In this document: piece after piece, positions 5,056 through 56,128 of the stretch
How the letters are laid out: the number at the start of each line of letters is the position of its first letter
Position numbering within the stretch: the first letter of the stretch is position 1
From: a virus
Length of the DNA: 64,000 nt
IMG/VR virus record: IMGVR_UViG_3300045988_087130
Location: 25,785 to 89,784 of that record
Reading direction: 5' to 3' (one strand)
The notes under the pieces: generated by a model
What the model was told of the DNA's origin: nothing
The model's input: only the letters and a program-made list of their open reading frames with translations
Database searches by the model: none
Made by a program: the position numbers and the translations under genes

Positions 5056-5312
5056 TGAGAATAGAACCTAGTGAGTTCTTGCCGATAGGTAACGAATTTC
5101 AGAAAATCTTCGGTGTAAGCTTTGGAAAGTTTATAGATATGCGGTTTCTTTTGGCAAGAAAAGAACTGGTCTTCAACTTGCTTAAGTTCACGGATTGGCT
5201 TGAAGTGCGTTATCCGGATGAGTGTTTCATTGATGGAGTGAGTTACAATGCAGTTGTCGAGCGAAAGTTTGGCAAGCGAGGGGTTAAACTGATAAAAAAG
5301 TTATTAGGATGA
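5055..5312 (+). CDS. hypothetical protein
   Basis: 85-aa ORF. Confidence 0.4.
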   Translation: MRIEPSEFLPIGNEFQKIFGVSFGKFIDMRFLLARKELVFNLLKFTDWLEVRYPDECFIDGVSYNAVVERKFGKRGVKLIKKLLG

Positions 5313-6034
5313 AATATATGGGCAGCAAAGCGAGAATCGTGCATGAGATATTGCCGATTATGCAGGACAAGGAACATGATACGTTTGTAGATGCTTTCTG
5401 TGGTGGCTGTAGTGTTATTGAGAACGTTCCGGACACGTATCGCAGGATTGCCAACGATAAGAATAAGTATCTTATCGAAATGTGGAAGCATCTTCAGAAT
5501 GGAGGATTTGTCTTCAGTCATATTAGCAAGGAGACGTATGACAAGGCACGAGATTGCTATCACGGAAAGAATAATTTCTTTACGGAAGCTGGTGTAGGAC
5601 TAGTCGGCTTCATGGCAAGCTTTAATGGTCGCTTCTTTGATGGTGGCTATAGCGGACATAATGTTGTCGGCAAGAACGGAAAGGCAAGAGATTACATAAG
5701 GGAGCAGATTGAAAACACTATGCGTGATGTGCCTCTCATTAAAGGTGTTGAGTTCTATAGCGGCAGTTATGATGAACTTGTGATACCGGAGAGGAGTATA
5801 GTGTATTGCGATATACCTTACAAAGCTACGAAAAAGTACGATGTATCAAAGAACTTCGATTATGAAAGTTTCTATATTTGGTGCATGGAAATGGCTAGAA
5901 GAGGTCATAAGGTCTTTATCAGCGAGTACCAGATGCCACAAGAGTTCAGATGTGTTTGGGAAAAGGAAGTAACAAACTCTCTTAACCCGAATATCACAAA
6001 GAGACCAGTCGAAAGGTTGTTTACTATTGATTAG
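5309..6034 (+). CDS. Dam-like (D12-class) DNA N6-adenine methyltransferase
   Basis: N-terminal MKYMGSKARI and FCGGCSV (SAM motif I), downstream catalytic DIPY (DPPY-type) in the alpha-class order. Confidence 0.75.
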   Translation: MKYMGSKARIVHEILPIMQDKEHDTFVDAFCGGCSVIENVPDTYRRIANDKNKYLIEMWKHLQNGGFVFSHISKETYDKARDCYHGKNNFFTEAGVGLVGFMASFNGRFFDGGYSGHNVVGKNGKARDYIREQIENTMRDVPLIKGVEFYSGSYDELVIPERSIVYCDIPYKATKKYDVSKNFDYESFYIWCMEMARRGHKVFISEYQMPQEFRCVWEKEVTNSLNPNITKRPVERLFTID

Positions 6035-13479: not shown

Positions 13480-14196
13480 ATGAAGAAGAAATTAATAATT
13501 GCCATCATCGCAGCTATCGTTGTGCTAGGTGGCGGCATTGGTGGATGTGTGTACCATTTCAACCAAGTTAAGGATGAAAAAATGGCTAATTACAAGAAGG
13601 CGTTGTCTGATTATCGCTTCAATAGTAATAGATTGATATATTCTTTGGATTTCATAGCAACGGATTTTATTATCAATTGGAATTCTGCTATAATGAATAA
13701 AAAGGCTATGAACGCAAAGAATGAAATTGTTCCTTGCTCTGATTTTGAAGATGCCGTTTCTTCTCGATATGCCTTCTATGATAAGTATGGTGCATATAAG
13801 ATTTTGGATAGTGTATATGTCTCATTAGGAAAGCATTTGGAAAAGATGCGTGTAAATTCTAATGAAGATCAGCAAAAAATCGTGGAAAGCTGCAATAAGG
13901 AATACAAGGAGTTGAATAATGCTATTGTTTTTGTAAAAAAGCCTTATGGCGCATTGGTGCAATATTCAAAACAGAAAGGAGACTTGTTCTTTAAACTTTA
14001 TGCTTTTGATAGCGAATTGGCTAAAGTTTCCCCATTGGAAGAAGATAAGGGCGATGAGAGAACAAAAGTAATGAATATGGAATTATACGGAACGCATTTG
14101 TTTGTAACGGCTGACTTTGACAAAGAACCGCAAAAGGCAAAAAAGCAAAGTTATACGTTTAGTAACATTTCAACAAATTGGGTTTATTTGAAATGA
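13480..14196 (+). CDS. membrane-anchored hypothetical protein
   Basis: N-terminal hydrophobic helix KKLIIAIIAAIVVLGGGIGGCVY; 238 aa. Confidence 0.45.
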   Translation: MKKKLIIAIIAAIVVLGGGIGGCVYHFNQVKDEKMANYKKALSDYRFNSNRLIYSLDFIATDFIINWNSAIMNKKAMNAKNEIVPCSDFEDAVSSRYAFYDKYGAYKILDSVYVSLGKHLEKMRVNSNEDQQKIVESCNKEYKELNNAIVFVKKPYGALVQYSKQKGDLFFKLYAFDSELAKVSPLEEDKGDERTKVMNMELYGTHLFVTADFDKEPQKAKKQSYTFSNISTNWVYLK

Positions 14197-22300: not shown

Positions 22301-22331
22301 TTTGATTATTAAACTAAATGTTGTATATTTG
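22301..22331 (+). promoter_or_regulatory. sigma-A-type promoter (TTTG-N19-TAtaTTTG)
   Basis: TTTG 22301, TAtaTTTG 22324; 25 nt before ATG 22356. Confidence 0.4.
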
Positions 22332-22355: not shown

Positions 22356-23408
22356 ATGAACAGAATAAAGGAAATTTTACAAGAGATAGGAATGTCTCAA
22401 AAAACGTTGGCTGAAAAGATAGGCATGACGGAGGTCGGTGTTAGCAAGATTGTTAATGGCACTTCAACAAAGGAGACCATGAAGAAAATAGCCAATATCC
22501 TAGGTGTTAAGGTCGAAGACCTGTACTATAAAGATAATATGGTTAAATATCGTGGAGAACTTGACTTGAATGGCACCAAGATACCTTGTTATGTTTTGGG
22601 CAACGGAACTAGGGTAATATCTGGTCGTGGAATGCAAGAAGCATTAAAGATGGTAGATACGGAAGATGGTAAGCAAACTGCCGGGACCAGATTAGTGAGA
22701 TATTTAAATCAAAAATCTCTTAACCCTTTTATTTCCAAATACATAGAAATGGACCACTTGTCACCTTTGGTGTGTAACGATAATGGAAAGGTTCTTCATG
22801 GTTATAAGGCAACCGCTTTGGCGGACATCTGTGATGCTTTTTTGGAGGCACGCAAGAACATTCCGTTATCACCTAGACAAGAGATTATAGCCGAGCAATG
22901 CGAAATCCTCATGCGTGCATTCGCTAGGGTTGGTATCATCGCATTGGTAGATGAGGCAACAGGCTTTGATAAGGAAAAGAGCGAGGTTAAGGACAAGCTG
23001 CAAACGTTCTTTAATCAATTCCTCTTAGAGGAGGCTGCGAAGTGGGTTAAGGTGTTCCCCGACCAATTCTTTATGGACATATACAAGATGAGGGGCTGGA
23101 CGTGGCATGAGTCGAGGAATATGCCTGGTGTTATGGGCAATTGGATAAGAGATATTGTCTATGAGCGCATAGCGCCAATTATGGAGGAACTTGACAAGAG
23201 AAATCCAAAGAATGAGCATGGAAACCGTACAAAGAGATTTCATCAGTTCATTAACCAAGAGAAGGGAATACCAAAACTGAAGGAGTATCTCTCTTCCATT
23301 CATGCTTTGGTTGTGGTGTCAGATTATGATTGGGCAAAGTTTATGGATAATCTGAACAAAGTATATCCTAGAACCGACATTGAGTTGTTCTTGGCTTTCG
23401 ATGCATAA
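22356..23408 (+). CDS. XRE-family HTH protein with a large C-terminal domain
   Basis: N-terminal MSQKTLAEKIGMTEVGVSKIVNG HTH; 350 aa; C-terminal domain not recognised. Confidence 0.55.
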   Translation: MNRIKEILQEIGMSQKTLAEKIGMTEVGVSKIVNGTSTKETMKKIANILGVKVEDLYYKDNMVKYRGELDLNGTKIPCYVLGNGTRVISGRGMQEALKMVDTEDGKQTAGTRLVRYLNQKSLNPFISKYIEMDHLSPLVCNDNGKVLHGYKATALADICDAFLEARKNIPLSPRQEIIAEQCEILMRAFARVGIIALVDEATGFDKEKSEVKDKLQTFFNQFLLEEAAKWVKVFPDQFFMDIYKMRGWTWHESRNMPGVMGNWIRDIVYERIAPIMEELDKRNPKNEHGNRTKRFHQFINQEKGIPKLKEYLSSIHALVVVSDYDWAKFMDNLNKVYPRTDIELFLAFDA

Positions 23409-23414
23409 AACAAA

Positions 23415-23450
23415 GAAGAGGAACGTATGATGCGTTCCTCTTTCTTTTTA
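23415..23450. terminator. bidirectional rho-independent terminator between convergent genes
   Basis: AAGAGGAACG-TATGAT-GCGTTCCTCTT flanked by A-run upstream and TTTCTTTTTA downstream. Confidence 0.6.
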
Positions 23451-23921
23451 TAGTTTCTTTTCTTCCAGTAATTCGTCAACTCTCGCTTGAAATGCCAGCT
23501 CTGTCTCTGAAAGGCTGTAGCCAGAGTAGGAATAGCTTGTCCCGATGATGTGGCCATCAAACCTTCCAGTATTGTCATCCTTTGTGAAAGTGCCTTTGTA
23601 ACCCTTGTATTGGAATACTATTTCCTTATTATCCTCCTGCTTGTCCTTGTCGTAAGACTTAGCTATCTTAATCAGGTAACAGAAGCCGAACATGAATAGG
23701 CAAGAGATAAAGGAAGAGATTGAGAATCCAACCATTGCCCATCCTATCGCCTTCGTCTCCTGCTCTCCAAAGAAGCCCATCATCAAGCCGATGGCAAACA
23801 ATAATATAGTTAACCATAGTGCTACTGTACTAATTAACGAGAGAACACGGAATACCGCTGTACCTCTCAAATTGAAAAAATCATTCATAGCCGTAAAAGT
23901 TTTAATTATTAATACTTGCAA
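23448..23921 (-). CDS. small membrane protein (possible superinfection-exclusion-type function)
   Basis: Minus-strand 157-aa ORF with two hydrophobic helices; sits directly downstream of the minus-strand repressor. Confidence 0.45.
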   Translation of the reverse strand: MQVLIIKTFTAMNDFFNLRGTAVFRVLSLISTVALWLTILLFAIGLMMGFFGEQETKAIGWAMVGFSISSFISCLFMFGFCYLIKIAKSYDKDKQEDNKEIVFQYKGYKGTFTKDDNTGRFDGHIIGTSYSYSGYSLSETELAFQARVDELLEEKKL

Positions 23922-23936
23922 GGAATGTTCCTTACG

Positions 23937-24239
23937 TTACTTAACACTTTCCAACTTGTCCAGCACGTCCCTAGCCTCAGCAATGGACGATGCGGAATAC
24001 AACTCACCACCTTGTTTTATTAGGGCGATGAAATCACCCATAGCATCTACTTTGTTCTGCTTATCAAACAATTCTGCTACAGGACAGCCTATAGCGTTTG
24101 CTATTTTTTCGATAGTTGATATACGCAAGTCGTTTTTCTCGCTAAGTAAACGAGAAACCGAAACTCTATTCATACCCATCCGGTCTGCTAAGTCTTGTTG
24201 CGTTACACCATATTTATTAAGAACATCTTTAAATCTCAT
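23937..24239 (-). CDS. CI-like XRE-family repressor
   Basis: Minus strand; N-terminal GVTQQDLADRMGMNRVSVSRLLSEKN HTH; divergent from the rightward genes across an operator-rich intergenic region. Confidence 0.65.
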   Translation of the reverse strand: MRFKDVLNKYGVTQQDLADRMGMNRVSVSRLLSEKNDLRISTIEKIANAIGCPVAELFDKQNKVDAMGDFIALIKQGGELYSASSIAEARDVLDKLESVK

Positions 24240-24440
24240 AATATGTAATACGTTACATTGATATTTTCTTGCAAAGATAAGAATAATATTTGAAATGTAG
24301 CATATATACGTAAAAGTATTAACGAAGTTTAAAGAATAGTACGTTACAAATGAATATCTGTTAATTAACCTAAATACGTTACACTTTCTTTCTAAAATAT
24401 TTTGTAGTGTAACGTAAATATGTTACCTTTGCATTGTGAT
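24240..24440. promoter_or_regulatory. divergent promoter/operator region (ACGTTACA operator repeats)
   Basis: ATACGTTACA 24248, GTACGTTACAAA 24339, ATACGTTACAC 24374, inverted GTGTAACGTAAATA 24407; rightward TTTG 24401/TAccTTTG 24424; leftward -7 CAAAgaTA 24272. Confidence 0.55.
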
Positions 24441-24522
24441 TAAAAAACAAAGGTCACAATAACATTATTAATTTAGCTGAGGTTGCACCTCCGAGTCGGC
24501 ACTCGTAAAACGGTATAGCAAT

Positions 24523-24705
24523 ATGACTACTTCAATGCTAAGAAGAAACTTGATTCAGAAGTTCGTTATGATAGAGTTCGTAAGCAACAGGATAAACACC
24601 CAAAAGGACGTTGATAGAATGTTGAATATGATAACAATAAAGCTCAATATGAACAACGATGAGGCTAAGAGCTTCTTGCGTGAGAGCATCGGACTTGCAA
24701 AGTAA
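24523..24705 (+). CDS. hypothetical protein (first rightward gene of the switch)
   Basis: 60-aa ORF after an 80-nt hairpin-rich leader. Confidence 0.35.
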   Translation: MTTSMLRRNLIQKFVMIEFVSNRINTQKDVDRMLNMITIKLNMNNDEAKSFLRESIGLAK

Positions 24706-24739
24706 GTAATTTAAGTTTAATGTTTAAAATTGAAAGATT

Positions 24740-25075
24740 ATGGCTACTACATTTAAGAATATGATGAGAGAAGTGATGAATATGGCACACAGAGCCTTTC
24801 AGCTTAAAGGTGCTTATATGAGTTGGGCAGAATGCTTGAAGCAAGCTTGGCAGGTTATCAAGCTGAAGGCTCGCATGAAGAAGCAGGTCGTTGAGTTCTA
24901 CTTTCAGAAAATGAATGGTGAGATTCGTCAGGCTTTCGGCACTTTGATGGAGAGTCATATTGACTACACTCCAAACGGCAAGGGTTACGCTTGCAAGGAC
25001 TGCACAAAGTATTGGGATGAAGTCAAGGGAGAGTGGAGACAATTCAAGAACTACAACTTGATTAGAGTTGCTTAA
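24740..25075 (+). CDS. hypothetical protein
   Basis: 111-aa ORF. Confidence 0.45.
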   Translation: MATTFKNMMREVMNMAHRAFQLKGAYMSWAECLKQAWQVIKLKARMKKQVVEFYFQKMNGEIRQAFGTLMESHIDYTPNGKGYACKDCTKYWDEVKGEWRQFKNYNLIRVA

Positions 25076-25108
25076 CAAGGTTATTAACGATTTAAAAAGA
25101 AACTAGAT

Positions 25109-25408
25109 ATGAGCGCAAAGATTATCGTGATGCAAGGCAACATGGTTGCAACCATCGAAGAGACGAACAAGGACACATTTCTCAAGCGTGGAGAGTATAA
25201 AGAGACCGATCTGGACAGACATAAGCGTGAGGTCGATTTCTTGATTACAAGCATCGCTAACCGCTACGAAGTGACATTCAATCACAAGGTAGAGCTGAAG
25301 GAAAGCCGAAGCATCAAGAAAAGCGAATATTTCGATAACATTTACTACGTTACCGAGAATGCATTGAAAAAGCTGAAAAAGCAATACTCATACGAGTGTG
25401 ATTTGTAA
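25109..25408 (+). CDS. hypothetical protein
   Basis: 99-aa ORF. Confidence 0.45.
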   Translation: MSAKIIVMQGNMVATIEETNKDTFLKRGEYKETDLDRHKREVDFLITSIANRYEVTFNHKVELKESRSIKKSEYFDNIYYVTENALKKLKKQYSYECDL

Positions 25409-25416
25409 TAGATTTC

Positions 25417-25439
25417 GTGAGGCACACACTAAACTGCAC
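25417..25439 (+). promoter_or_regulatory. GTGAGGCACACAC..AAACTGCAC element
   Basis: Exact motif 30 nt upstream of ATG 25470. Confidence 0.4.
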
Positions 25440-25469
25440 CGGACTTTGGACATTAAATATTTAAGAGAT

Positions 25470-25768
25470 ATGGATAAGAATTTGATGAATGCTCTTTACG
25501 TTGAGCATGATGGCAAGATTGGCGTTTTAAGCTCAGATGAGCACAAGGTGGTATCACAGGTTATCGGTACGGATTTGACGCTTGTGTACGACAAGAAAGA
25601 GAGTAATACGTACCTTTTATACCATTGACCCAAGCCCACAAGTTCGAGTGCAAGGGTAGCCACATCATTGTGGATGGCAAGCGGTTCGATTCGGACATCT
25701 TTTTTAGAAAGAATGGTTGCCAATGGATTCAGATGCAATCAAAAGAAATGCTATCAATGGTAGCGTAA
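25470..25768 (+). pseudogene. frameshifted paralog of 10649-10945
   Basis: Reads MDKNLMNALYVEHDGKIGVL... in-frame to 25628 (TYLLYH*), then continues in the -1 frame as ...IPLTQAHKFECKGSHIIVDGKRF...; the shift sits at T4 run 25615-18, and one extra T restores the full-length protein. Confidence 0.5.
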
Positions 25769-25778
25769 CAATATATAA

Positions 25779-25805
25779 GGTGAGGCACACCCGAACAACT
25801 GCACA
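25779..25805 (+). promoter_or_regulatory. GGTGAGGCACACC..AACAACTGCAC element
   Basis: Exact motif 10 nt after the 25768 stop. Confidence 0.4.
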
Positions 25806-25955
25806 TTATCTTTGATGTTTAACAATTAAATTCCGTGAATAATGGAAAGAAGAAGTAATGTGCAGCAATGTGCCACGATAGCTGGTCGTGCTGACGAGGA
25901 CAGAAGTCCTCCAAAGCAAAACAAACGTTAATGTTTTAAATTAAACGCTAAAGCG

Positions 25956-25987
25956 TTTGCAAGTTAAAGAAAATAGCATTAACTTTG
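25956..25987 (+). promoter_or_regulatory. sigma-A-type promoter (TTTG-N20-TAacTTTG)
   Basis: TTTG 25956, TAacTTTG 25980; begins a roughly 300-nt structured leader. Confidence 0.4.
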
Positions 25988-26289
25988 CAGCCGAAATAAC
26001 AAGGTTGTGAAGTAAGGCGCACGACTGACTGATATTTGAATAATTTTACAAAATAAATATTTTCATTTGCTCCAAGCGTGGAGCATCGTCATTCCGTTCA
26101 TCGCCTTACATAAGTGGACGGTTGACACAAGCCCTGTCCGCACTCGTGACTTTAGCGGATGGGGCTTTTCGTTTCCACCACAGCCAAATGTAATTATTAA
26201 CAATTTAAATTTGGAGTTACTATGACAGAAAATGTAAACCGAATGATGGGGAATCCGCCAGTGTTCCCATCGGGTATTGTGAAACTGGT

Positions 26290-27060
26290 ATGACAGGTGA
26301 TGGAGAAGAAAGAATCACCTCGTTGGAAATTGCTGAAATGGCAAACAAACGACATTCCGATGTTATGCGCTCTATCCGAAATATGGAGAAAGCATGGCTT
26401 CAAGTTAACGGACGCAATTTTGCGCTCGTTGATTATCAAGACCAAAAAGGAGAACATAGACCATGTTATTCTCTTACAAAGAAAGAAAGCCTTTATATTG
26501 CTACCAAGTTTGATGATGTAATGCGTGCAAAGCTCATCAATCGTTGGGAGGAGTTGGAAATTAAGCATCGTGAGCAGGTGCAATCCGAGCAAATGAAGCC
26601 TCAGCAAAGTTTCTTGCAAGACAAGTTGACGGTTGCCAATTGGGTAATGGACTCGTTGCGATATAGTGATGCCGCACGATTGCAGTTGGTGAGTCAGATA
26701 GCAGAACCTTATGGTGTTCCGGTTCCCGATTACGTCCACGCTCCGAATGGTGCTTCGCACGCAGTCAGTGAATTATTGAAAGAACGTGGTGTTGAGTTAT
26801 CAGCCATCAAGTTCAATAAGCTGGCATTGGCTGCTGGCTTATTGGAAGAGAAGACCCGAAAGGGTACGCACGGCAAGGTTCACAAGTACTATTCCGTCAC
26901 AGAGAAAGGATTGGAGTATGCTTTGAATGACATCTACAAGGATGTGCCTGGACAAACCATTCCAAAGTGGTATGACAACAAGTTTGGGGAGGTGTTGGAA
27001 ATCATCGGTTACAAGCCATCTAGTCAAGGAGATATGTTTGCAAGCGGTGAGACACACTAG
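26290..27060 (+). CDS. Rha-family phage regulatory protein
   Basis: N-terminal ITSLEIAEMANKRHSDVMRSIRNM fits the Phage_pRha signature; C-terminus ...QGDMFASGETH parallels that of 11061-12041; a 23-codon uORF (26222-26293) overlaps the start. Confidence 0.65.
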   Translation: MTGDGEERITSLEIAEMANKRHSDVMRSIRNMEKAWLQVNGRNFALVDYQDQKGEHRPCYSLTKKESLYIATKFDDVMRAKLINRWEELEIKHREQVQSEQMKPQQSFLQDKLTVANWVMDSLRYSDAARLQLVSQIAEPYGVPVPDYVHAPNGASHAVSELLKERGVELSAIKFNKLALAAGLLEEKTRKGTHGKVHKYYSVTEKGLEYALNDIYKDVPGQTIPKWYDNKFGEVLEIIGYKPSSQGDMFASGETH

Positions 27061-28647: not shown

Positions 28648-28770
28648 TTAAAATGCAAAAGAAATACATTAAATAATTTGCATATTTCGATAATTCTTTG
28701 TATCTTTGCATCGTAATTAAGAAACAAGGTTACTAATTAAAAAGGTGAGACACACCGTAAAAACTGTGAT
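28648..28770 (+). repeat. promoter-leader cassette, copy C
   Basis: Near-identical to copies A/B/D; TAtcTTTG 28701; GGTGAGACACACC 28744; ATG 28776. Confidence 0.7.
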
Positions 28771-29382: not shown

Positions 29383-29791
29383 CGATTTCAACGCTGCCGA
29401 TGAATTTGTCGTTGAGGCAATGATGCAAGATGGCAAATTCAAGGTTATCGGCAAGGTTATTATTGATAATAATCTTCTGAATGATGATGATTTGGAAACT
29501 ATCTGGGATTATGCCAACTGGGAGACGAACGGCTATGAAAAGATGGTTGTCTCTAACGGAGTGTACAAAGGCTTGAAAGCATTTAGCGATGGGCGTTTGT
29601 TCTATGTAATTACTGATGATGAGGTTGGAGTGGTAAATGACAATATCATGGTACGTAAGCATTATGATGTCAACAATGGCTATTATATTAAGTCATCAAG
29701 GTTGCACAAGGAACAATCCAGGGACTTATGGTGCTTTGGTAGCCGTGAGACTATTGAGAACGAATATAGGTCAAATAAAAAACTGTTTTAA
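29363..29791 (+). CDS. hypothetical protein
   Basis: 142-aa ORF. Confidence 0.4.
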   Translation: MRPIEISDFNAADEFVVEAMMQDGKFKVIGKVIIDNNLLNDDDLETIWDYANWETNGYEKMVVSNGVYKGLKAFSDGRLFYVITDDEVGVVNDNIMVRKHYDVNNGYYIKSSRLHKEQSRDLWCFGSRETIENEYRSNKKLF

Positions 29792-31026
29792 ATTGAGTAG
29801 TATGATTTCATACAAGTACAAGTTATACCGGACGAAGAAGACGAGGCATTTGGATAAGATGCTCCGAGAGGCTTGCTATGTTTGGAATCATGCGCTTGCC
29901 TTGCAGAAGAGATACTATAAGTTGTATCACAAGTATATTCCTAGATTTATGATGCATCATCATTTTGCTAAACGATATAAGCCAATTTTGCTTAACAGCC
30001 ATACCGTTAGGGAAATCTTGGATAGATTAGATGTAGCTTACAAGCGTTTCTTTAAGCATGATGCAAAGCGTCCACCTAAGTTCAAAAAGATGGTTGAATT
30101 TAGTTCGTTCGTTTTCAAAGATAATGGTTATTCCCTTAGTGGAAACGAGTTTGTGATAAACAAGATAAAGAAGTCCTTCAAGTTCTCTCTGAGCCGTCCT
30201 TACGATGGCAAGGTTAAGAGGGTATCAGTCAAGCGCAACAAGCTGGGCGAGTACTTCATTATCCTTTGCTTGGACAAGCAAGCCGAGCCTTACGGAAAGT
30301 CACACGATGGTGCATCCGTGGGCATCGACTTTGGATTGAAGAAGTACATGACTTTGAGCGATGGTCGTGAGATTGATAATCCTCAGTTCCTTAAAGCTGA
30401 CTTGCAGGAGCTTAGGCGCAGGTCTCGCAACCTCTCGAAGTGCAAGAAGGGCAGCAACAACCGCAAGCGCAAGAAGATGGAATTGGAGCGATTGTATCGG
30501 GATATTGTGAACAAACGTTCCGATTTCCAGTGGAAGCTGGCTCACGAACTTTGCAAGCGTTACGACTTGATTTGCTTGGAGGACTTGAACTTGGAGGTAA
30601 TGGCAAAGCGTTGGGGACGCAAGATGTCTGACTTGGCACATAGCGATTTCGTTGTGAAGTTGGAGCACGTAGCGAAGAAGTATGGCGTTAAGGTTCATAA
30701 GATAGACCGCTTCTTCCCATCGAGCCGCCTTTGCACTTGTGGTTATAAGAACGATAAGCTGTCATTGGGTGATAGGATTTGGACTTGCCCTAGTTGTGGT
30801 GCTGTTCATCCTAGAGACCTCTTCGCAGCTGAGAATATACTTCGGCAGGGCATTGCCGAATTGGGGAGTGGTAGTAAGTCACCCAAGCACTCGCAAGGGC
30901 GCAGCCACGTTAACAACCCAACAATCCCTTGTAAATAGCAATGGAGTGTGCCATGTATGCAATAGACTTAGCTCAACGCAAGCAACTTGAAGGATAAAAA
31001 CAAAATACAAAATTAAGAATAAGCAT
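29780..31026 (+). mobile_element. putative IS1341-like element (TnpB only); ends not defined
   Basis: Single tnpB with an 88-bp 3' flank before the next gene; compositional island. Confidence 0.4.
29802..30938 (+). CDS. tnpB: IS200/IS605-family TnpB (OrfB, IS1341-type), no TnpA partner
   Basis: N-terminal YKYKLYRTKKTRHLDKMLREACYVWNHALAL (OrfB_IS605 N-terminus) and C-terminal zinc ribbon CTCGYKNDKLSLGDRIWTCPSCGAVHPRD; GC-richer than its surroundings. Confidence 0.8.
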   Translation: MISYKYKLYRTKKTRHLDKMLREACYVWNHALALQKRYYKLYHKYIPRFMMHHHFAKRYKPILLNSHTVREILDRLDVAYKRFFKHDAKRPPKFKKMVEFSSFVFKDNGYSLSGNEFVINKIKKSFKFSLSRPYDGKVKRVSVKRNKLGEYFIILCLDKQAEPYGKSHDGASVGIDFGLKKYMTLSDGREIDNPQFLKADLQELRRRSRNLSKCKKGSNNRKRKKMELERLYRDIVNKRSDFQWKLAHELCKRYDLICLEDLNLEVMAKRWGRKMSDLAHSDFVVKLEHVAKKYGVKVHKIDRFFPSSRLCTCGYKNDKLSLGDRIWTCPSCGAVHPRDLFAAENILRQGIAELGSGSKSPKHSQGRSHVNNPTIPCK

Positions 31027-36068: not shown

Positions 36069-36076
36069 AATTGATT

Positions 36077-37006
36077 ATGTCTAAGCAGACTGGTTTTTCA
36101 TTCGCAAGTTCAAAGAAGTCATTAATCGAGACTATTGACGAAATCAAGAAGTCAAAGATGCCTCGCAACGAAAAGATTGTTGCATTGAAGGCTTGCGGTC
36201 TTCGTGAGAAAGAAATCTCCGATATGTTGAAGGTTTGTGTACCAAGCGGTTCAACTTCAACGAGATTCGTTTATACATTCGGTGTTGAGATTGAATGTGT
36301 TCATGCCGAGCGCAATGCCTTGATAGAGGCGGGTCGTCAGAATGGTGTTGATATTCATTCTGAGGGCTATAACCACACCGACAACAAGAGTTATTTCAAG
36401 ATTGTTAGTGATTCTTCAGTTGGTGGTGATGTTGACCCTAACGAGGTTGTAAGTCCGGTATTGAATGGCAATACAAATGGTATGGCAACTTTGAAGAAGG
36501 CTATCAAGTCTTTGGATGCCGTAGGTGCAAGAGTAAATTCTACTTGTGGCCTTCACGTTCATATCGGTGCAGCAAAGTTGACAGGTGAGCAATATGTTAA
36601 CGTCTTCAAGAATTATCAGAAGCTTGAAAGATTGATTGATAGCTTCATGGCTCCTTCAAGAAGAGGCAATTGCCGTTGGGCAGCCAGCTTGCTTGACAAA
36701 GATTTCTCTAATTGCCGTGGCAATTACGATATTAGACGTAATGTATTTCATGGAGACAGATATTACAAGGTCAATGCAGAGAGTTTTGCACGTCACAAGA
36801 CTATCGAGTTTCGCCAGCATCAAGGTTCAACTAATTACAAGAAGATTGAAATGTGGGTTAAGTTCTGCGCAAAGCTTGTCGGTTGGTCTCGTAACAATGT
36901 CTTCACTAGTGAGGTTATGAACATCGAAGATATACCTTTCTTGAATAAAGAAGAAAAGGCTTTCTTCCAGAGCCGTAAGGATGCATTTGCAGCCAATAAC
37001 GACTAA
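36077..37006 (+). CDS. putative amidoligase (Amidoligase_2 family, glutamine-synthetase-like fold)
   Basis: FGVEIEC (E-x-E metal site) and CGLHVHIGA motifs typical of the phage Amidoligase_2 family; first ATG at 36077. Confidence 0.55.
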   Translation: MSKQTGFSFASSKKSLIETIDEIKKSKMPRNEKIVALKACGLREKEISDMLKVCVPSGSTSTRFVYTFGVEIECVHAERNALIEAGRQNGVDIHSEGYNHTDNKSYFKIVSDSSVGGDVDPNEVVSPVLNGNTNGMATLKKAIKSLDAVGARVNSTCGLHVHIGAAKLTGEQYVNVFKNYQKLERLIDSFMAPSRRGNCRWAASLLDKDFSNCRGNYDIRRNVFHGDRYYKVNAESFARHKTIEFRQHQGSTNYKKIEMWVKFCAKLVGWSRNNVFTSEVMNIEDIPFLNKEEKAFFQSRKDAFAANND

Positions 37007-37080
37007 TTGATGTAGTCCTAGGGTAAAACCCCTAGGACACAAAAATCAAGTATTACTAAGAAAAAAGAAAGGGTAAAGAT

Positions 37081-37614
37081 ATGTGTGTTATTATTGTATG
37101 TCCGAAAGGTACTACTTTGCCATCCGTTGATGAGCTGAAGGCAGCGTATATGAGAAATCCCGATGGTTGCGGATTTGTGAGTGAGTCTGACCATTATAAG
37201 AGCTTGCATTTCTCTACATTTATACGTAGATTGATGAAGCGAGATATAAATGAGAATGTAATCATACATTTTAGATTTGCTACTCATGGTTCTGTCTGTG
37301 TCAAGAATTGTCATCCGTTCTACAAGGCTGGTTATTGGTTCGCCCATAATGGAGTGCTCCCGATCTGCTCCGAGCATGATAAAACGGATAGTCAGATTTG
37401 CTTTGAACGTTTCATTTATCCTACTATCAAGAAATATGGTTGGGGTTCTGATGAACATATGAAAGAAATGAATAAATGGACAGCTCATGGTTCTAAGTTT
37501 GCAATGTTGCATAATGGTGAGATTTTGAAGTCCGGTAAATTCATAGAGCGTGATGGACGGTTCTATTCTAATTTGAATCATTTGGGTTATATGAGAAATG
37601 TCATAAACTTTTAG
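37081..37614 (+). CDS. class-II (Ntn) glutamine amidotransferase domain protein
   Basis: N-terminal MC (Cys2 nucleophile) and HFRFATHGSVCVKNCHPF matching the GlmS-type H.R.AT.G....N.HPF motif. Confidence 0.55.
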   Translation: MCVIIVCPKGTTLPSVDELKAAYMRNPDGCGFVSESDHYKSLHFSTFIRRLMKRDINENVIIHFRFATHGSVCVKNCHPFYKAGYWFAHNGVLPICSEHDKTDSQICFERFIYPTIKKYGWGSDEHMKEMNKWTAHGSKFAMLHNGEILKSGKFIERDGRFYSNLNHLGYMRNVINF

Positions 37615-44265: not shown

Positions 44266-45295
44266 ATGTCTTGCTTCTGTTGCGGAGGTGGCAGTTCCTT
44301 TGGTTATAAGTTAGCTGGCTACGATGTTGTAGCCTGTAACGAGATAGACCCAAAGGTTATGAAGATGTACTTGAAGAATCACGATGTCAAGTATTCTTTC
44401 AATTGTGATATTCGTGAGCTGATTGCCAATATCAATATAGGGGGGGCATATTATGAAAGAAGAGTTGCATAATCTGGATATATTGGATGCTAGTTTCCCA
44501 TGTTCGGTATTCAGTATTGCAGGTGACCGCCAAAAGGCTTGGGGAAAGGAAAAAGTATTCCGAGAAGGTCAGAAAGCACAAAGGCTTGACGATTTGGCTT
44601 TTTACTCAATCGCCCTCGCTCAAGAACTACAACCAAAGGTAGTGGTTTTTGAGAATGTCCAAGGTTTGTTGCAAGGTGAAGCTATCGAGTACGTGAAAGA
44701 GATTTACAGGCAGATGGATAATGCCGGATATATCTTGCAGCATTGGTTGCTTAATGCACGTAATATGGGTGTTCCTCAGAATCGACCTAGGGTGTTCTTT
44801 CTAGGATTACGCAAAGACCTTTGCAAGCCGTTTATGGTTCAGAAGGATTTGTTCGAGCGAGTGCCTAAGATAGATATGGACTTCAACGAGAAAGAAATTG
44901 TCTTGGATGAGTTTTCGGACTATAGTGGAAGACAGATTCCAAAAGGAGTGATGAAGTATTGGGAGCATAGAAACGAGAAAGACAATTCTATCGGTGATAT
45001 TGTCAAACGGATGGATAATCGTCTTTCTATGTTCAATAATATGTTTCTTAAAAAGGATAAAGTATGCAATACTATATCAGCAATGGAAGATAGGCTTGTG
45101 TATTTTGATAATCCAAGTTATATTTCAGCGCATGATACGATTTTAGCATCAACATTCCCGATGGATTATGACTTTAATGGCATGAAACCTTGGTTTGCTT
45201 GCGGAATGTGTGTTCCTCCAGTTATGATGGCTAATGTAGCTACGAGAATCTGGGATTGTTGGTTGTCAAAGATTAAAAAGGAGGAATGCGCATGA
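44266..45295 (+). CDS. DNA (cytosine-5)-methyltransferase interrupted by a frameshift at a G7 tract
   Basis: Motif I FCCGGGSS in ORF 44188-44472; motifs IV FPCSVFSIAG, VI ENVQGLL, VIII QNRPRVFF in ORF 44453-45295; the frames join if the G run 44440-44446 has 6 or 9 G. Confidence 0.7.
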
Positions 45296-46523: not shown

Positions 46524-47237
46524 ATGCTTAAATTTGATAGAATATACAATTCCGACTGTATAGAAGGAATGAAGCAAATAGGGAGTGGGGATGTCAATTT
46601 AATTGTTACTGACCCACCATATTGTATCTCCTATAAGACCGGATGGAGAGCAGACGACCATCGTTTTTCGAAGGAAATACTCAATGACGATAATGAGCAA
46701 TTGATTATTGATTATATGAGCGAATGCTACCGGATATTGAAGGATGATAGTGCCGCTTACGTCTTTTGTTCAGCTAAGACCTTGGACTTTTTTATGCAAC
46801 AAGCTAGGAACGCAGGGTTTACCATTAAGAATGTGCTCATTTGGCGAAAGAACAACCATACGGCTGGAGATTTAGAGGCGCAATATGGGCAATGTTACGA
46901 GCCAATCCTGTACTTGAATAAAGGCAGACGAACCATAAACGGAAAGCGTTTGGAGGACGTATGGGACTTTGATAGAGTTCCATCTGATAAATTGGTACAT
47001 CAGAATGAGAAACCAATTCCCTTGCTTATGCAATGCATCTTGAAATCATCGGACGAAGGAGATTTGGTATTTGATGGTTTTATGGGTTCAGCAAGTACTG
47101 CTCTGGCTTGTATGCGTACAAACAGGAATTTCCTTGGCTTTGAGTTAGACGGGGAATATTTCAAGGTAGCACAAAAAAGAATCAAAGAAGAAATGTTTAA
47201 TCAAAAAGATATGTTTGGATATGCTGGAGATAGATAA
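46524..47237 (+). CDS. beta-class N6-adenine/N4-cytosine DNA methyltransferase
   Basis: N-terminal catalytic TDPPY, C-terminal SAM site FDGFMGSASTALAC. Confidence 0.75.
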   Translation: MLKFDRIYNSDCIEGMKQIGSGDVNLIVTDPPYCISYKTGWRADDHRFSKEILNDDNEQLIIDYMSECYRILKDDSAAYVFCSAKTLDFFMQQARNAGFTIKNVLIWRKNNHTAGDLEAQYGQCYEPILYLNKGRRTINGKRLEDVWDFDRVPSDKLVHQNEKPIPLLMQCILKSSDEGDLVFDGFMGSASTALACMRTNRNFLGFELDGEYFKVAQKRIKEEMFNQKDMFGYAGDR

Positions 47238-47967
47238 GATTTATCAAGTTGATTGTCTGGATGGTATGAGCAAGATTGATGACAAGTCCGTCTCGCTTAT
47301 ACTCACAGACCCTCCATATGAAATTTCAAGGGATTCCAATTATGCAAAGTCCGCTCCTACTGGTAAAGATACTGATAGATTCCGCATATCTATCGACTTT
47401 GGAGACTGGGATAAACAGGAAGCATTTGATATAGGCTCTATGATAAAAGAATCCTACAGGTGCTTGAAAGATGGTGGATATATAGTTTGTTTCTATGATT
47501 TGTGGAAGATTGGGGTCGTAAAGGATGCGATGATTAATGTCGGATTTAAACAAATTAGATTTATAGAATGGATAAAAACAAATCCTGTTCCAATAAATAG
47601 TAAGACAAACTATCTCACAAACGCAAGAGAGGTCGCTGTGTGTGGGGTGAAAGGTAAAAATCCTATCTTTAAAAGCGAATATGACAATGGAGTATATAGC
47701 TTTCCAATCTGTCGTGATAAGGGGAGATTTCATCCTACCCAGAAGCCTGTTAGTCTTTTCAGAAGCATTATAAACAAGCATTCCTGCAAAGGAGATATTG
47801 TACTAGATTGCTGTATAGGTAGTGGAACTACGGCTATTGCGTGTATTCAAGAAAATCGTAATTTTATTGGTTTTGAAACTAATAGAGAGTTTTACGACAA
47901 AGCAAACGAGAGAATAGAAAATGAATTAATGATAAAGCAAGATAGTTTATTTAGTAATGAAAGTTAG
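47215..47967 (+). CDS. beta-class N6-adenine/N4-cytosine DNA methyltransferase
   Basis: TDPPY motif; C-terminal LDCCIGSGTTAIAC. Confidence 0.75.
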   Translation: MDMLEIDKIYQVDCLDGMSKIDDKSVSLILTDPPYEISRDSNYAKSAPTGKDTDRFRISIDFGDWDKQEAFDIGSMIKESYRCLKDGGYIVCFYDLWKIGVVKDAMINVGFKQIRFIEWIKTNPVPINSKTNYLTNAREVAVCGVKGKNPIFKSEYDNGVYSFPICRDKGRFHPTQKPVSLFRSIINKHSCKGDIVLDCCIGSGTTAIACIQENRNFIGFETNREFYDKANERIENELMIKQDSLFSNES

Positions 47968-48692
47968 TGGGTGATATGATGGAGCTAAATAGAATTTATC
48001 AAGGTGATTGCCGAAAGCTTCTAAAGCAGCTAGACGATGAATGTATAGACCTAGTATGCTCTGATGTTGCTTATCCGGTACAAGCTAGAGGTGGGCGCAG
48101 TAGTATGAGTGGATATTGGACGGATTCTCAAACTAGAAAAGGTAAGATATTCAAGAGTAATGACATAGATATTTCGGAGTATATCAACGAACTATATCGA
48201 GTACTAAAGGATAAGACTCATTGCTATCTTATGTGTAACGACTATAATCTGATGCACTTTCTAAATGAGATAGGACGGAGTGAGTTTCACTTCACAAAGT
48301 GTTTAATATGGGATAAATGCACTAAGGTGTGTGGAACGTATTATATGAACCAAAAAGAGTATATCATTATGCTTCGTAAGGGAGGTGGAAAGCCAATTAA
48401 TGAGTTTGGCACATCTGACATTCTGAGTGTTCCTATTCCAACCAACAAACGCAGGGATAAAGAAGGATTGATCAATCAGACCGAAAAACCAGTTAAGTTG
48501 ATGGAGATTCTAATCAGAAACTCAACAAATGTAGGTGATGTTGTTCTTGACCCATTTATGGGGAGTGGCACAACAGCAAGGGCTTGCGTTAATCTTGAAA
48601 GAAAGTATATAGGCTTCGAAATAGACCAGCGGCAAGTAGATTTTTCCAATAACGAATTAAAGAGCATGAGTAGGCAATTAAGTCTGTTTTAA
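47967..48692 (+). CDS. beta-class DNA methyltransferase homolog with atypical catalytic motif SDVAY
   Basis: Aligns with its neighbours (CSDVAY in place of TDPPY); C-terminal LDPFMGSGTTARAC is intact. Confidence 0.6.
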   Translation: MGDMMELNRIYQGDCRKLLKQLDDECIDLVCSDVAYPVQARGGRSSMSGYWTDSQTRKGKIFKSNDIDISEYINELYRVLKDKTHCYLMCNDYNLMHFLNEIGRSEFHFTKCLIWDKCTKVCGTYYMNQKEYIIMLRKGGGKPINEFGTSDILSVPIPTNKRRDKEGLINQTEKPVKLMEILIRNSTNVGDVVLDPFMGSGTTARACVNLERKYIGFEIDQRQVDFSNNELKSMSRQLSLF

Positions 48693-48922: not shown

Positions 48923-49552
48923 ATGAGAAGAAGAAAGTTGAACAAGTCTCCAGTGTTAGGATTCTGCGGATTTGTTATCGGTTACGAGTGCAAGGAAAAG
49001 GGAATAAAGCTGATGGAGTGCGATAAGGCGCAAGCAGATGCAATCATAGTTCCTCATCACTTTTCACACAAGGTAACGAAGAATAGTTGCTTGAATCTTT
49101 TGGTATTGTATAAGGATAAGATAAGGGGTGCAATGCAAATAGGGTATGGAATCCGACCGCACATCAAGACTGAAAAGGGCGAAGTGTTGGATTACCATCA
49201 AGTGAGGGAATTTGACAGAATGTGGTTGTCTGATGATATGCCAAAGTTTAGTGAGACGATTTGCCTATCTCTTTTGCATAAGTATATTAGGGCAACACAT
49301 AAGGAAATCAAGTACCTTATATCTTATGCCGATACGTCCATAGGTAACAAGGGAACTATATATAAAGCAGCAAACTATGAGCATATTGATACCATTAAGG
49401 CAGATTTCTATGTGTTACCAAGTGGTGAGCGTGTGCATCCGGTTACTATGTGGCATCGGCACAAGACAAGAGCATGGGAGGTTCTAACGGAACTATACCC
49501 AGGAATAAAAAAGGCAGAAGGGTTTCAACTTAAATTTCTAAAGAAGTTATGA
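48923..49552 (+). CDS. hypothetical protein embedded in the methyltransferase array
   Basis: 209 aa; no recognised motif; sits between MTase paralogs. Confidence 0.4.
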   Translation: MRRRKLNKSPVLGFCGFVIGYECKEKGIKLMECDKAQADAIIVPHHFSHKVTKNSCLNLLVLYKDKIRGAMQIGYGIRPHIKTEKGEVLDYHQVREFDRMWLSDDMPKFSETICLSLLHKYIRATHKEIKYLISYADTSIGNKGTIYKAANYEHIDTIKADFYVLPSGERVHPVTMWHRHKTRAWEVLTELYPGIKKAEGFQLKFLKKL

Positions 49553-49798: not shown

Positions 49799-50569
49799 AT
49801 GGAATTAAATAAGATATATAATGAGGATTGTCTAGTGGGAATGAAACAGATTCCGGACGCAAGTGTGGATTGTATTATCTGCGATTTGCCGTATGGTGCT
49901 CTCAATAAAAAGAGTGAGGGCGGTGGCTGGGATAGCATTATTCCGTTTGAACCATTGTGGAAGGAATATCTGCGCATAACCAAACCAAATGCAGCCATTA
50001 TTCTTTTCTGTCAAGGTATGTTTACCGCACAGCTTATGATGTCGCAGCCGAAACTCTGGAAATATAATCTTATTTGGAGCAAGCAGCGGGTAACAGGCTT
50101 TTTGAATGCCAACAAGATGCCTCTGCGCTCACATGAGGATATTGCAGTATTCTATCGGAAACAACCTATCTACAATCCTCAGATGGTAAAATGTGCGCCA
50201 CATCAAAGGAATCATCGAAGGGGCGATGGCTCTCATAGTTTGAAGCGAGGTTGTTATGGCGATCATAAAGAAGTGCCTACTATCATATCAGATGAGAAAT
50301 TCCCAAAGAGCATTATCTGCTTCGACAAAGAACATTCTGCCAACACCTTCCACCCCACTCAAAAGCCAGTCGCTCTTATTCAGTACCTCATCCGTACCTA
50401 CTCCAACGAGGGCGACACCATCTTAGACAACTGCATGGGCAGCGGTACTACCGCTATCGCAGCCATCCGTGAAAAGCGAAATTTCATCGGGTTCGAGTTA
50501 AATAAAGAATATTACGACAAGGCTTGTAAGCGCATTAAGTTAGAAATTATGCAACCCAGCCTATTCTAA
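49799..50569 (+). CDS. beta-class N6-adenine/N4-cytosine DNA methyltransferase
   Basis: CDLPY catalytic motif; C-terminal LDNCMGSGTTAIAA. Confidence 0.75.
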   Translation: MELNKIYNEDCLVGMKQIPDASVDCIICDLPYGALNKKSEGGGWDSIIPFEPLWKEYLRITKPNAAIILFCQGMFTAQLMMSQPKLWKYNLIWSKQRVTGFLNANKMPLRSHEDIAVFYRKQPIYNPQMVKCAPHQRNHRRGDGSHSLKRGCYGDHKEVPTIISDEKFPKSIICFDKEHSANTFHPTQKPVALIQYLIRTYSNEGDTILDNCMGSGTTAIAAIREKRNFIGFELNKEYYDKACKRIKLEIMQPSLF

Positions 50570-55520: not shown

Positions 55521-55552
55521 TTTGGCTATATGAAAATATTGTTTTACCTTTG
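55521..55552 (+). promoter_or_regulatory. sigma-A-type promoter (TTTG-N20-TAccTTTG)
   Basis: TTTG 55521, TAccTTTG 55545; the track ORF start 55550 lies inside the promoter, so ATG 55598 is taken as the start. Confidence 0.45.
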
Positions 55553-55597
55553 CACAATAAAAAATGGCATATATGGAATAATAAAAACAATCAACTT

Positions 55598-56128
55598 ATG
55601 AAGACGGACGCATTAGCTGTAGCCAATTACTTTATAGAATTGGCACAGAAAGAAGATAAGCCTATACATTTGTTAGGCTTGGTTAAACGTGTGTATATAG
55701 CGCACGGTTTTTCTCTTGCTTTGAATCATAGGGGATTGATAAATCCTAGATTTGACAAGGTTGAAGCATGGAAGTATGGTCCTGTTATACCATCTGTGTA
55801 TCATACATTCAAGCAACAACAACATACAGCAAATGAAATCAAGGATTTTGCTACAAATATGGTTTGGGACGAGAATAATTTCAAGCCAGATTGGGTTACT
55901 CCAAAGCTAGAAAATACAGAAGACAAAAAGGTTGTAGAGCTTGTGTGGAAAAGATACAAGAGTTTTAGTGATTCTGAATTAGTATCTCTAACACATAAAA
56001 AGGGTACTCCATGGTTTCTATGCTACATTGAGAATGAAAATGTGCCAATTCCAGACGAATTGACTACAGTTTATTACAAGCAATTAATTGAAAATATAGT
56101 TAATGCGCATGAAAGAAAATCTGTATGA
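55598..56128 (+). CDS. Panacea-domain (DUF4065/SocA-like) protein, putative antitoxin
   Basis: LGLVKRVYIAHGFSLALNHRGLINPRFDKVEAWKYGPVIPSVYHTFK fits the DUF4065 core (K..KLlYy..gw.La..g.pLF.e.feAW..GPV.p.vY). Confidence 0.6.
   Translation: MKTDALAVANYFIELAQKEDKPIHLLGLVKRVYIAHGFSLALNHRGLINPRFDKVEAWKYGPVIPSVYHTFKQQQHTANEIKDFATNMVWDENNFKPDWVTPKLENTEDKKVVELVWKRYKSFSDSELVSLTHKKGTPWFLCYIENENVPIPDELTTVYYKQLIENIVNAHERKSV

Follow-up and report, generated by a model that had tools for sequence, protein, structure and literature searches.

In phage lambda the immunity region comprises cI, the operators OR1-3, cro and the rexAB cargo genes, and heteroimmune lambdoid phages carry the swapped regions imm434 and imm21. 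Phage P22 possesses a second immunity region, immI (mnt and arc-ant), which controls an antirepressor and in which Mnt and Arc are ribbon-helix-helix proteins. In CTX-phi an SOS repressor acts in the same phage as RstR, and the controller (C) proteins of restriction–modification (R-M) systems bind adjacent dyads cooperatively and autoregulate. Here we set beside these systems a switch region within 64,000 nucleotides (nt) of viral DNA (IMG/VR record IMGVR_UViG_3300045988_087130, positions 25,785 to 89,784 of that record; this whole stretch is called the window below), in which a minus-strand gene for a 100-amino-acid (aa) XRE-family repressor with a helix–turn–helix (HTH) domain faces a plus-strand promoter across a set of short repeats. 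The reading favoured here, which we hold with moderate confidence, is that the region forms a self-contained, exchangeable repressor–operator cassette, a second immunity-type module beside an S24 repressor/integrase module located outside the window. The cassette is probably not the lambda-CI-like master repressor module of the phage.

The regulation of Bacteroidota prophages has barely been characterised; the literature found addresses only S24-type ‘complete CI-like’ repressors and gives no defined operators. LoVEphage/Quimbyvirus is a temperate phage of Bacteroides/Phocaeicola, 68-75 kb in size, that integrates at tRNA-Asp (PMC8008677, PMC8525569, bioRxiv 10.64898/2026.06.25.734096). LoVE prophages are mitomycin-inducible and have, at one prophage end, a complete CI-like repressor; constitutive expression in lysogens is reported for CI-like repressors and the hypothetical genes beside them, and the early genes include an anti-repressor, a regulator near the tape-measure/capsid genes and an array of four methyltransferases (MTases), RtcB and an endonuclease (bioRxiv 10.64898/2026.06.25.734096).

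Candidate operators and promoters of the switch region

The window contains four copies of ACGTTACA, three on the plus strand (24250, 24341 and 24376) and one on the minus strand (24408-24415); shuffled sequences lead one to expect 1.07. All four lie inside 166 nt (chance for four random sites about 7e-8), between the minus-strand 100-aa XRE/HTH_3 gene and a plus-strand promoter of the Bacteroidota type, the rightward promoter (PR). The related count for TACGTTAC was six against 0.72 expected, a number reached in 0 of 100 shuffles. When 38 distinct ACGTTAC sites from the window and its relatives were aligned, a second conserved block, TAAC, was seen eight bases upstream of GTTAC. Since positions 4-7 of the alignment (TAAC) mirror positions 16-19 (GTTA), the operator unit is predicted to be a pseudo-palindrome of 18-20 bp, kTAAC-N8-GTTAC, with the repeats as its halves and TACGTTACA as the strong half, which would be the type of target expected of an HTH dimer. 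TAAC-N8-GTTA is present twice in the whole window, both times in the switch (O4 and O5). On the comparative data, the repeats are very likely operators. The sites and the signals around them are as follows.

24249-24257, plus strand: O1, strong half-site TACGTTACA in the repressor leader, between the leftward -7 box and the ATG; predicted autorepression site
24297-24314, no strand: O2, degenerate dyad GTAGC-N8-GTAAA, its centre about 40 bp upstream of the inferred leftward start
24330-24348, no strand: O3, strong right half TACGTTACA, left half degenerate in the window
24365-24383, no strand: O4, dyad TTAAC-ctaaatac-GTTACA
24408-24426, no strand: O5, dyad TGTAAC-gtaaatat-GTTAC, filling the PR spacer and overlapping the first bases of the -7 box
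24401-24431, plus strand: PR, with -33 TTTG at 24401-24404, N19 and -7 TACCTTTG at 24424-24431
24272-24279, minus strand: leftward -7 box, CAAAGATA, reading TAtcTTTG on the minus strand, without a canonical -33 at the right spacing
24434-24522, plus strand: PR leader, with a 5' stem TTGTGA-N14-TCACAA, a AAGAAACAA-type loop and then the GC-rich hairpins GAGGT/ACCTC and CGAGT/ACTCG
23415-23443, no strand: two-way intrinsic terminator, scanned as 13-pair (plus) and 10-pair (minus) hairpins with T tails

The same registers are used in relatives, which are given L numbers here. The O1 position is also occupied in L003, L006, L010, L092 and L094-96. At O2, L006 has TAAC-N8-GTTAA and L003/L093 the perfect TGTAACGTA, and O3 reads TTAAC-N8-GTTAC in L092 and L094.

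An earlier note, made from the sequence of the window, had taken this region for a lambda-like switch, and the coordinates and sequences that it gave hold. It had counted four to five operator repeats, of which the four clustered ACGTTACA copies stand. Its fifth, on the plus strand at 23931-23940 (TACGTTAC itself at 23933-23940), is doubtful and was not counted as an operator because it overlaps the stop codon and is present regardless of repressor type (also in the type-B L001 and in L006); the fifth dyad is instead the degenerate one at 24297-24314. The proposed HTH repressor at 23937-24239 (minus) matches HTH_3/HTH_26, the two-helix membrane protein at 23448-23921 (minus) has two hydrophobic stretches, and the bidirectional terminator corresponds to the hairpin at 23415-23443, which scores on both strands. 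The rightward -33 TTTG (24401) and -7 (24424) fit an enriched Bacteroidota promoter pattern, the inverted repeat placed inside the rightward core promoter is O5, between -33 and -7, and the leftward -7 at 24272 is conserved in all relatives.

This promoter pattern, TTTG-N18-21-TAnnTTTG, has 16 copies in the window, 13 of them on the plus strand, where 2.0 would be expected in all, and marks a Bacteroidota host and many independent predicted plus-strand promoters. It was used in place of a sigma-70 promoter scan, which was uninformative (4 sites against 5.2 expected). The PR scaffold is present in all specificity types described below. A scan with the strict Bacteroidota pattern gave no full leftward promoter; the leftward -7 box is kept as CAAAG(A/T/G)TA in every specificity type and in distant relatives. 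No operators were found elsewhere in the window, while many further promoters exist (25956, 27189 and others), so the direct regulon of the repressor would be small.

The PR leader is conserved in types A-D irrespective of operator type (the window was compared with L001, L010 and L060-L063). The first GC-rich hairpin is swapped for another hairpin in L010, L061 and L062, with CGAGT-n-ACTCG-TAAAAC kept, and a AAGAAACAA-type motif also lies downstream of the -7 box in distant relatives. The leader may act in cis as RNA, either as an attenuator or as a put/nut-like element, or it may be the site of action of a shared regulator; an Rfam search of 23300-25200 at a permissive threshold gave nothing above the gathering score. 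The terminator closes both the leftward repressor/membrane-protein transcript and the rightward HTH-P63C gene on its other side.

Specificity types

Specificity types were compared on IMG/VR contigs otherwise 94-99% identical to the window. The last 32 residues of the repressor are shared among these contigs, but at least four other HTH domains (types B-E) are found besides that of the window (type A). The motif of the divergent region differs with the type.

Type A (window): ACGTTAC
Type B: AAACTTA
Type C: ACGGAAA, as GTACGG-N6-CCGTAC
Type D: GGTAATAC / TAAAAGTA
Type E: AAACTTTT

The motif of a region's own type is present at 2-4.7 copies per approximately 235 nt, whereas the values for the motifs of the other types are zero or close to it, 0.86 and 1.00 being the highest off-diagonal ones; in flanking DNA the figure is 0.01-0.08. 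In every type the own motif occurs once in the spacer of a TTTG(G)-N19/20-TAnCTTTG promoter. In blastn comparisons of types B, C and D with the window, the alignment breaks exactly at 24035/24036 and resumes at 24393-24398, between flanks that are 94-99% identical. The replaced block thus runs from 24036 (codon 68) to about 24392, so that the HTH domain, the leftward promoter and the operators are exchanged as one unit.

24036-24392, no strand: swappable specificity cassette, 357 bp, with HTH residues 1-68, the leftward promoter and the operators up to the PR -33

On one side of this block, the DNA coding for the C-terminal region is 84-99% identical across types up to 24035. On the other, the first genes of the PR operon are 94-97% identical while the operators change type. 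No HTH was found in these first rightward genes in searches of Pfam, PHROG and NCBIfam, and their constancy across operator types implies that they encode no type-matched operator binder, that is, no Cro sharing the operators.

More distant relatives extend the association between protein and sites. L002-L005 represent a different phage, with a tyrosine integrase 1.3-1.9 kb from the repressor; their repressors are 58% identical to that of the window and the divergent region keeps 4-5 ACGTTAC sites in spacer DNA of approximately 70% identity. In homologues of about 51-55% identity, a C-terminus with CxxC replaces the usual domain and the NRVSVSRLLSEKND helix region is invariant, and repressors 51-59% identical overall have their sites at the same positions. 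Four perfect sites at the same relative positions are present in L092 and L094-96, those of L092 being the sole copies in 8.3 kb, and L093 has two perfect sites plus degenerate ones.

The 100-aa repressor

23937-24239, minus strand: XRE-family repressor of specificity type A, 100 aa, with an HTH at residues 3-58, a linker, and a beta-hairpin and helix at residues 72-98
23940-24035, minus strand: constant C-terminal domain, residues 69-100 (DFIALIKQGGELYSASSIAEARDVLDKLESVK), presumed to be a dimerisation and/or antirepressor-receiver module

The protein matched HTH_3 (PF01381) in Pfam with E 1.6e-11 (44.5 bits against a gathering cut-off of 23) and HTH_26 with E 3.6e-11. An AlphaFold (AF2) model built from a 23-sequence alignment had a mean pLDDT of 80.6 and consisted of a five-helix HTH (3-58), a flexible linker of low confidence, a beta-hairpin (72-83) and a helix (86-98). 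Pfam gave no Peptidase_S24 match in the 100-aa protein, and the model ends after the 30-aa beta-hairpin/helix. The nearest structures in the PDB were the R-M controllers C.BclI and C.Esp1396I and other XRE proteins, over the HTH alone; the C-protein structures superposed with a root-mean-square deviation of 1.6-2.1 A over 56-57 residues at 25-28% identity. In NCBIfam the repressor gave generic XRE matches, all of them sub-threshold, the best being NF041951 ‘phage_RstR’ at 24.5 bits against a cut-off of 80.

The C-terminal domain is near-identical in proteins with five different HTH domains and in one with a non-HTH N-terminus. Since it stays the same across types, it is the first candidate for the dimerisation surface and for the part that a common antirepressor would recognise. 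The repressor has 248 homologues, mostly from human-gut metagenomes. In an annotated phage collection the matches were unannotated faecal contigs only, and the supplementary tables of bioRxiv 10.64898/2026.06.25.734096 held no usable entry for the 100-aa protein.

In other prophages (P0112-P0120 and L092-L096) the type-A HTH is fused to a short tail that has one CxxC (CPxCG). A zinc site formed between two of these tails could serve as an alternative means of dimerisation. Next to the adjacent integrase of L095 comes a gene, probably of the host, for an aminotransferase, and a prophage boundary may lie there.

Mobility of the cassette

A cassette homologous to window positions 23901-26208 is inserted between the equivalents of 13461 and 13478 in L032, L053, L042, L062 and L063. 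At this site the repressor is co-directional with the tail genes, and the rightward operon faces the other way; in L032 the latter comprises WYL_2, ORFs (open reading frames) of 99, 123 and 66 aa and an AntA/KilAC antirepressor. The cassette is mobile, being found at differing genome positions and in differing orientations. Single contigs with two cassettes were _089887 (L053+L061), _104928 (L032+L067) and 3300029365_000009 (L042+L087), which combine types A and D or a type-A cassette and a remnant. This remnant (‘type F’), which sits at the post-tape-measure site, has a non-HTH N-terminus fused to the constant C-terminal domain. These contigs are either genuine double cassettes or chimeric assemblies. 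The type-D cassette of L067 adjoins a TnpB gene.

The S24 repressor and integrase module

The window encodes no integrase, partition gene or S24 protein, in agreement with the earlier note, which had found no integrase there and had proposed to look for one in flanking sequence. Such an integrase was found beyond the right end of the window, in a region read from near-identical relatives. In these relatives the order past the right end is a minus-strand operon (ResIII helicase, NinG, DUF4494, ..., Rad52, 93-aa protein), then, divergent from it, a 376-aa Peptidase_S24 protein, a 422-aa tyrosine integrase, an HTH_3 protein and two PAPS reductases. The S24 repressor and tyrosine integrase lie 10-14 kb beyond the window (L201 7410-8803; L178 252-1920; L189), and the contigs with this module include ones whose type-A repressor is 96-99% identical to that of the window. 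That relatives carry integrases supports a temperate lineage.

Across contigs of types A, B, D and E the identity of the S24 protein is 98-100%, one type-A contig (95.7%) excepted. As it is near-invariant across types, the S24 module is the constant element and the XRE cassette the variable one. Many IMG/VR contigs end 180-250 nt past the S24 gene, as expected for a prophage end, and this point is probably the att site. No type-A operators were found in the S24/p93 intergenic region of relatives; TTGCAA-rich repeats are present there, which may be -7 boxes. It is the S24 module, not the XRE cassette, that matches the ‘complete CI-like’ repressor of LoVE prophages (bioRxiv 10.64898/2026.06.25.734096).

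Gene content points in the same direction. The window encodes a 2042-aa tape-measure protein, AntA/ANT, Rha, four N6_N4 MTases, Mom, RtcB and an HNH endonuclease, and thus has the LoVE-type array of four MTases, RtcB and endonuclease; contigs of relatives with the integrase and S24 gene are 64-73 kb long. A large anti-restriction arsenal consists of two C5 methylases, one D12 N6 methylase, four N6_N4 methylases and a Mom-family protein (73-804, 5309-6034, 44453-45295, 46524-48692, 48923-49552 and 49799-50569). RtcB is encoded at 60240-61442, an HNH/NUMOD endonuclease at 61527-62360 and a SocA/Panacea antitoxin-like gene at 55550-56128. A Mu-like transposable phage was considered for the Mom homologue and rejected, as no transposase was seen after the switch.

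Flanking genes

23448-23921, minus strand: 157-aa membrane protein, cargo gene, with hydrophobic stretches at about 21-53 and 58-87; predicted to be co-transcribed with the repressor
24523-24705, plus strand: 60-aa ORF that opens the PR operon in the window; L006, L010 and L092-96 lack it
24740-25075, plus strand: WYL_2 (PF10902, formerly DUF2693) protein, 111 aa, Pfam E 1.3e-17
25109-25768, plus strand: three small overlapping ORFs (99, 76 and 47 aa), completing the conserved part of the cassette, which extends to about 26208
25956-27060, plus strand: Rha-family gene (26290-27060), ‘anti-repressor Ant’ in PHROGs, with its own promoter-like site at 25956-25987

The membrane protein has no Pfam or PADLOC family and gave one weak PHROG match, HicB-like, in its C-terminus; PADLOC likewise assigned no defence family to the membrane cargo genes, WYL_2 or the 60-aa ORF. 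The cargo slot differs between relatives, with other genes at this position in L001, L002, L006, L010, L032 and L094. A 238-aa membrane-protein gene, at 13480-14196 in the window, is the cargo directly downstream of the repressor in relatives; near the end of this ORF, a minus-strand promoter-like site at 14146-14177 (cf. L001 324-365) contains GTTAC...AACGTA.

WYL_2 is the first gene of the PR operon in all relative groups but one, is divergent from the repressor in L006-L012, L092-L096, L032 and L067, and is absent in L002-L005; a PDB sequence search with it returned nothing meaningful. In the window the Rha gene stands behind its own promoter and is possibly also reached by read-through from PR. 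The same operon ends in Rha, AntA/ANT or Rha+ANT in L006, L010 and L094, and in AntA/KilAC in L032. ThyX has its own promoter-like site, at 27189, and nearly all other notable ORFs of the window are on the plus strand.

Between the tape-measure gene and the terminator lies an HTH_3 + P63C-domain gene (22356-23408), served by a promoter of its own (22301-22331). L060 and L087 lack this gene but have the arrangement in other respects, and the gene is therefore an insertion. A TnpB gene (OrfB_IS605 + Cas12f1-like TNB) at 29637-30938 lies within the phage early region, and a TnpB homologue adjoins type-D/type-C cassettes in L061, L067 and L070. The pair Amidoligase_2 + GATase_4 is found at 36071-37614 and adjoins the repressor in L093 (4439-5915). 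Among promoter-like sequences, TTTGCATATT(A/T)C(A/G)ATAATTCTTTGTATCTTTG is present twice, at 2062-2093 and 28677-28708 (26.6 kb apart), and TTTGCAAGT... three times, at 25956, 34712 and 43388; such near-identical families suggest co-regulated promoter classes.

A proposed circuit and its alternatives

In the most economical circuit, the 100-aa protein would dimerise, probably via its short beta-hairpin/helix C-terminal domain, and the dimer would bind the 18-20-bp kTAAC-N8-GTTAC pseudo-palindromes, with TACGTTACA as the strong half. Occupancy of O5 would fill the -33/-7 spacer of PR and so block RNA polymerase. Cooperative binding would be contributed by O4 and O3 and, to a small degree, by O2, and through O1, located in its own leader, the repressor would hold down its own synthesis (autorepression). 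As the centre of O2 lies some 40 bp upstream of the point where the leftward transcript is inferred to start, positive autoregulation as at lambda PRM may also take place through it. The leftward transcript would include the variable membrane-protein gene, and PR would drive a short operon of the 60-aa ORF, the WYL_2 protein and the small ORFs, with an antirepressor last in relatives. Specificity would change when the HTH domain and operators are swapped together, with the C-terminal domain and the promoter scaffold constant, and the cassette would act as a second immunity region gating the WYL_2/antirepressor operon alongside the SOS-sensitive S24 repressor.

A wider proposal, put forward tentatively and as rather doubtful in its entirety, is that a two-tier lysogeny circuit operates in what is the most prevalent lineage of inducible temperate phages in the human gut. 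An invariant SOS-sensitive S24 repressor adjoining the integrase would be joined by a mobile second-immunity cassette that sets superinfection specificity, with at least five orthogonal HTH-plus-operator types built on a single Bacteroides promoter scaffold. An antirepressor would find its common receiver in the constant 32-aa C-terminal domain, and a WYL_2/DUF2693 (WYL-superfamily) protein, not Cro, would be the conserved counter-player, possibly acting on the structured leader RNA.

It is unlikely, though well within consideration, that the 100-aa protein is instead the master lysis–lysogeny switch, holding lysogeny by shutting the main early promoter, with a non-HTH substitute for Cro downstream. 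Divergent promoters with multiple operators are canonical for such a switch, PR is co-directional with nearly all downstream genes of the window, diversification into specificity types is how immunity determinants behave, and in L093-L096 and L002-L005 the repressor lies by a tyrosine integrase at an apparent prophage end with no other repressor seen nearby. However, relatives 96-99% identical have a separate S24 repressor adjoining the integrase, and the mitomycin C induction of LoVE prophages has been attributed to the S24 protein (bioRxiv 10.64898/2026.06.25.734096). A type-matched Cro is lacking, many other operator-free promoters serve the plus strand, the cassette lies elsewhere and opposes the structural genes in L032, L053 and L062, and some contigs hold two cassettes. 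Quite improbable is a lytic-cycle timer, an early-made protein that is silent in the prophage and shuts off the WYL_2/antirepressor burst in the manner of Arc or Cro. The leftward promoter has no canonical -33, and expression may therefore be conditional; moreover, the early induced genes include ‘a transcriptional regulator’ near the tape-measure/capsid genes (bioRxiv 10.64898/2026.06.25.734096). That regulator may equally be the HTH-P63C gene, however, and CI-like repressors with their adjacent hypothetical genes are constitutive in lysogens (bioRxiv 10.64898/2026.06.25.734096), whilst a co-transcribed, variable membrane cargo and specificity types are typical of immunity genes expressed in the prophage.

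The chance that the locus is a toxin–antitoxin or addiction pair, with the XRE protein as autoregulating antitoxin, the membrane protein as toxin and the repeats only as its own operator, is very small. An HTH gene followed by a small membrane-protein gene is compatible with this, as are the weak HicB-like PHROG match in the C-terminus of the membrane protein and the weak similarity of the repressor to HigA/HipB-type antitoxins, but the latter is sub-threshold (HigA 22.7 bits against a cut-off of 47.7, HipB 17.1 against 79) and PADLOC matches none. The downstream gene, moreover, is not conserved, being wholly different in L001, L006, L010, L032 and L094, and one operator lies within the core of the opposite promoter, a placement kept in all types. 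Equally improbable is that another factor (HTH-P63C, Rha or a host regulator) binds the repeats, or that they arise by chance or from the structure of an AT-rich spacer. The link between protein and sites rests on sequence comparison and another HTH gene (22356-23408) is only about 0.5 kb away, but the motif tracks the HTH type of the adjacent repressor in five types and, among distant relatives, the recognition-helix region NRVSVSRLLSEKND, which does not vary; L060 and L087 keep the architecture but lack HTH-P63C, and the clustering of the motif far exceeds chance.

Several points weigh against the second-immunity reading that we favour. The S24 gene and integrase are placed in this genome from close relatives, neither lying in the window, and the probable assignment to LoVEphage/Quimbyviridae rests on gene content rather than on alignment to a reference genome. 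A scan of the 185,579 species-representative genomes of GTDB, which detects near-exact peptide words only, gave one distant Treponema match and no close prophage copy of the repressor. The operon in the window is co-directional with the early and structural genes that follow, so that control of more genes by read-through is possible, and in the smaller prophages (L093-L096, L002-L005) the homologous repressor adjoining the integrase at the prophage end may well be the master repressor. As the HTH domain and the operators are physically linked, part of their co-variation could come from linkage; linkage would not explain a motif kept in diverged spacers beside a conserved recognition helix.

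The analysis supplies base-level operator predictions for a second regulator of Bacteroidota prophages. The part that diversifies between otherwise identical phages is the XRE regulator, not the S24 repressor, which bears on superinfection immunity and on prophage cross-talk in polylysogenic gut bacteria. The repressor/operator pairs of the five types, candidates for orthogonality, share a Bacteroides promoter scaffold and could be put to use as genetic parts. If the LoVEphage/Quimbyvirus assignment is true, the phage is among the commonest temperate phages in human gut viromes (PMC12629997, PMC8525569).

Comparison with known systems

The lambda-like CI switch proposed in the earlier note holds in so far as there are a repressor, divergent promoters and repeated predicted operators; an S24 domain and a counterpart of Cro are missing. 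In the same way, the layout is that of a canonical temperate immunity region, but relatives have a separate S24 repressor and carry the cassette at differing positions and orientations. At the level of sequence, the locus shares with lambda a repressor gene divergent from an early promoter, several dyad operators, one of them overlapping the core promoter, and an accessory gene predicted to be co-transcribed with the repressor. As in imm434/imm21, repressor and operators are exchanged as one block between near-identical phages. In contrast to lambda, there is no S24 autocleavage domain and no Cro sharing the operators, the promoters are of the Bacteroidota -33/-7 type, only the HTH half of the repressor is swapped and a separate S24 repressor is present elsewhere in relatives.

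The ‘complete CI-like’ (HTH + peptidase) repressors of LoVE prophages (bioRxiv 10.64898/2026.06.25.734096), probably of the same lineage, are likewise prophage repressors whose gene is divergent from an early operon. Unlike the 100-aa protein with its hypervariable HTH half, however, that repressor has 376 aa and a Peptidase_S24 domain, adjoins the integrase and is 98-100% conserved. The closest solved HTH structures are those of C.BclI, C.Esp1396I and C.AhdI, but the HTH alone aligns, the 100-aa protein has an extra C-terminal mini-domain and there is no adjacent restriction/methylase pair, the neighbours of the repressor being the membrane protein and the WYL_2 operon.

With P22 immI the cassette would share a small repressor divergent from a short operon with a gene of an antirepressor family (Rha and AntA/KilAC, candidate antirepressors), coexistence with a primary SOS-type repressor module (seen in relatives only) and a location that can be in or near the late-gene region; it differs in its XRE HTH repressor and in having WYL_2, not an Arc-like repressor, as the first operon gene. 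CTX-phi RstR/ig-2 is similar in that the repressor measures some 100-110 aa, has its HTH at the N-terminus and lacks a cleavage domain, that its gene is divergent from the promoter which it is here predicted to repress, and that repressor and operators form a hypervariable block defining immunity types. The score of 24.5 bits against 80 for NF041951 does not make it a member of that family, however, and hosts, phage type and regulated genes are unrelated. The 100-aa protein is outside the CI/LexA cleavable, RstR and Mnt/Arc families and, by analogy, the cassette most likely resembles P22 immI (Mnt/ant) or CTX-phi RstR more than lambda cI/cro.

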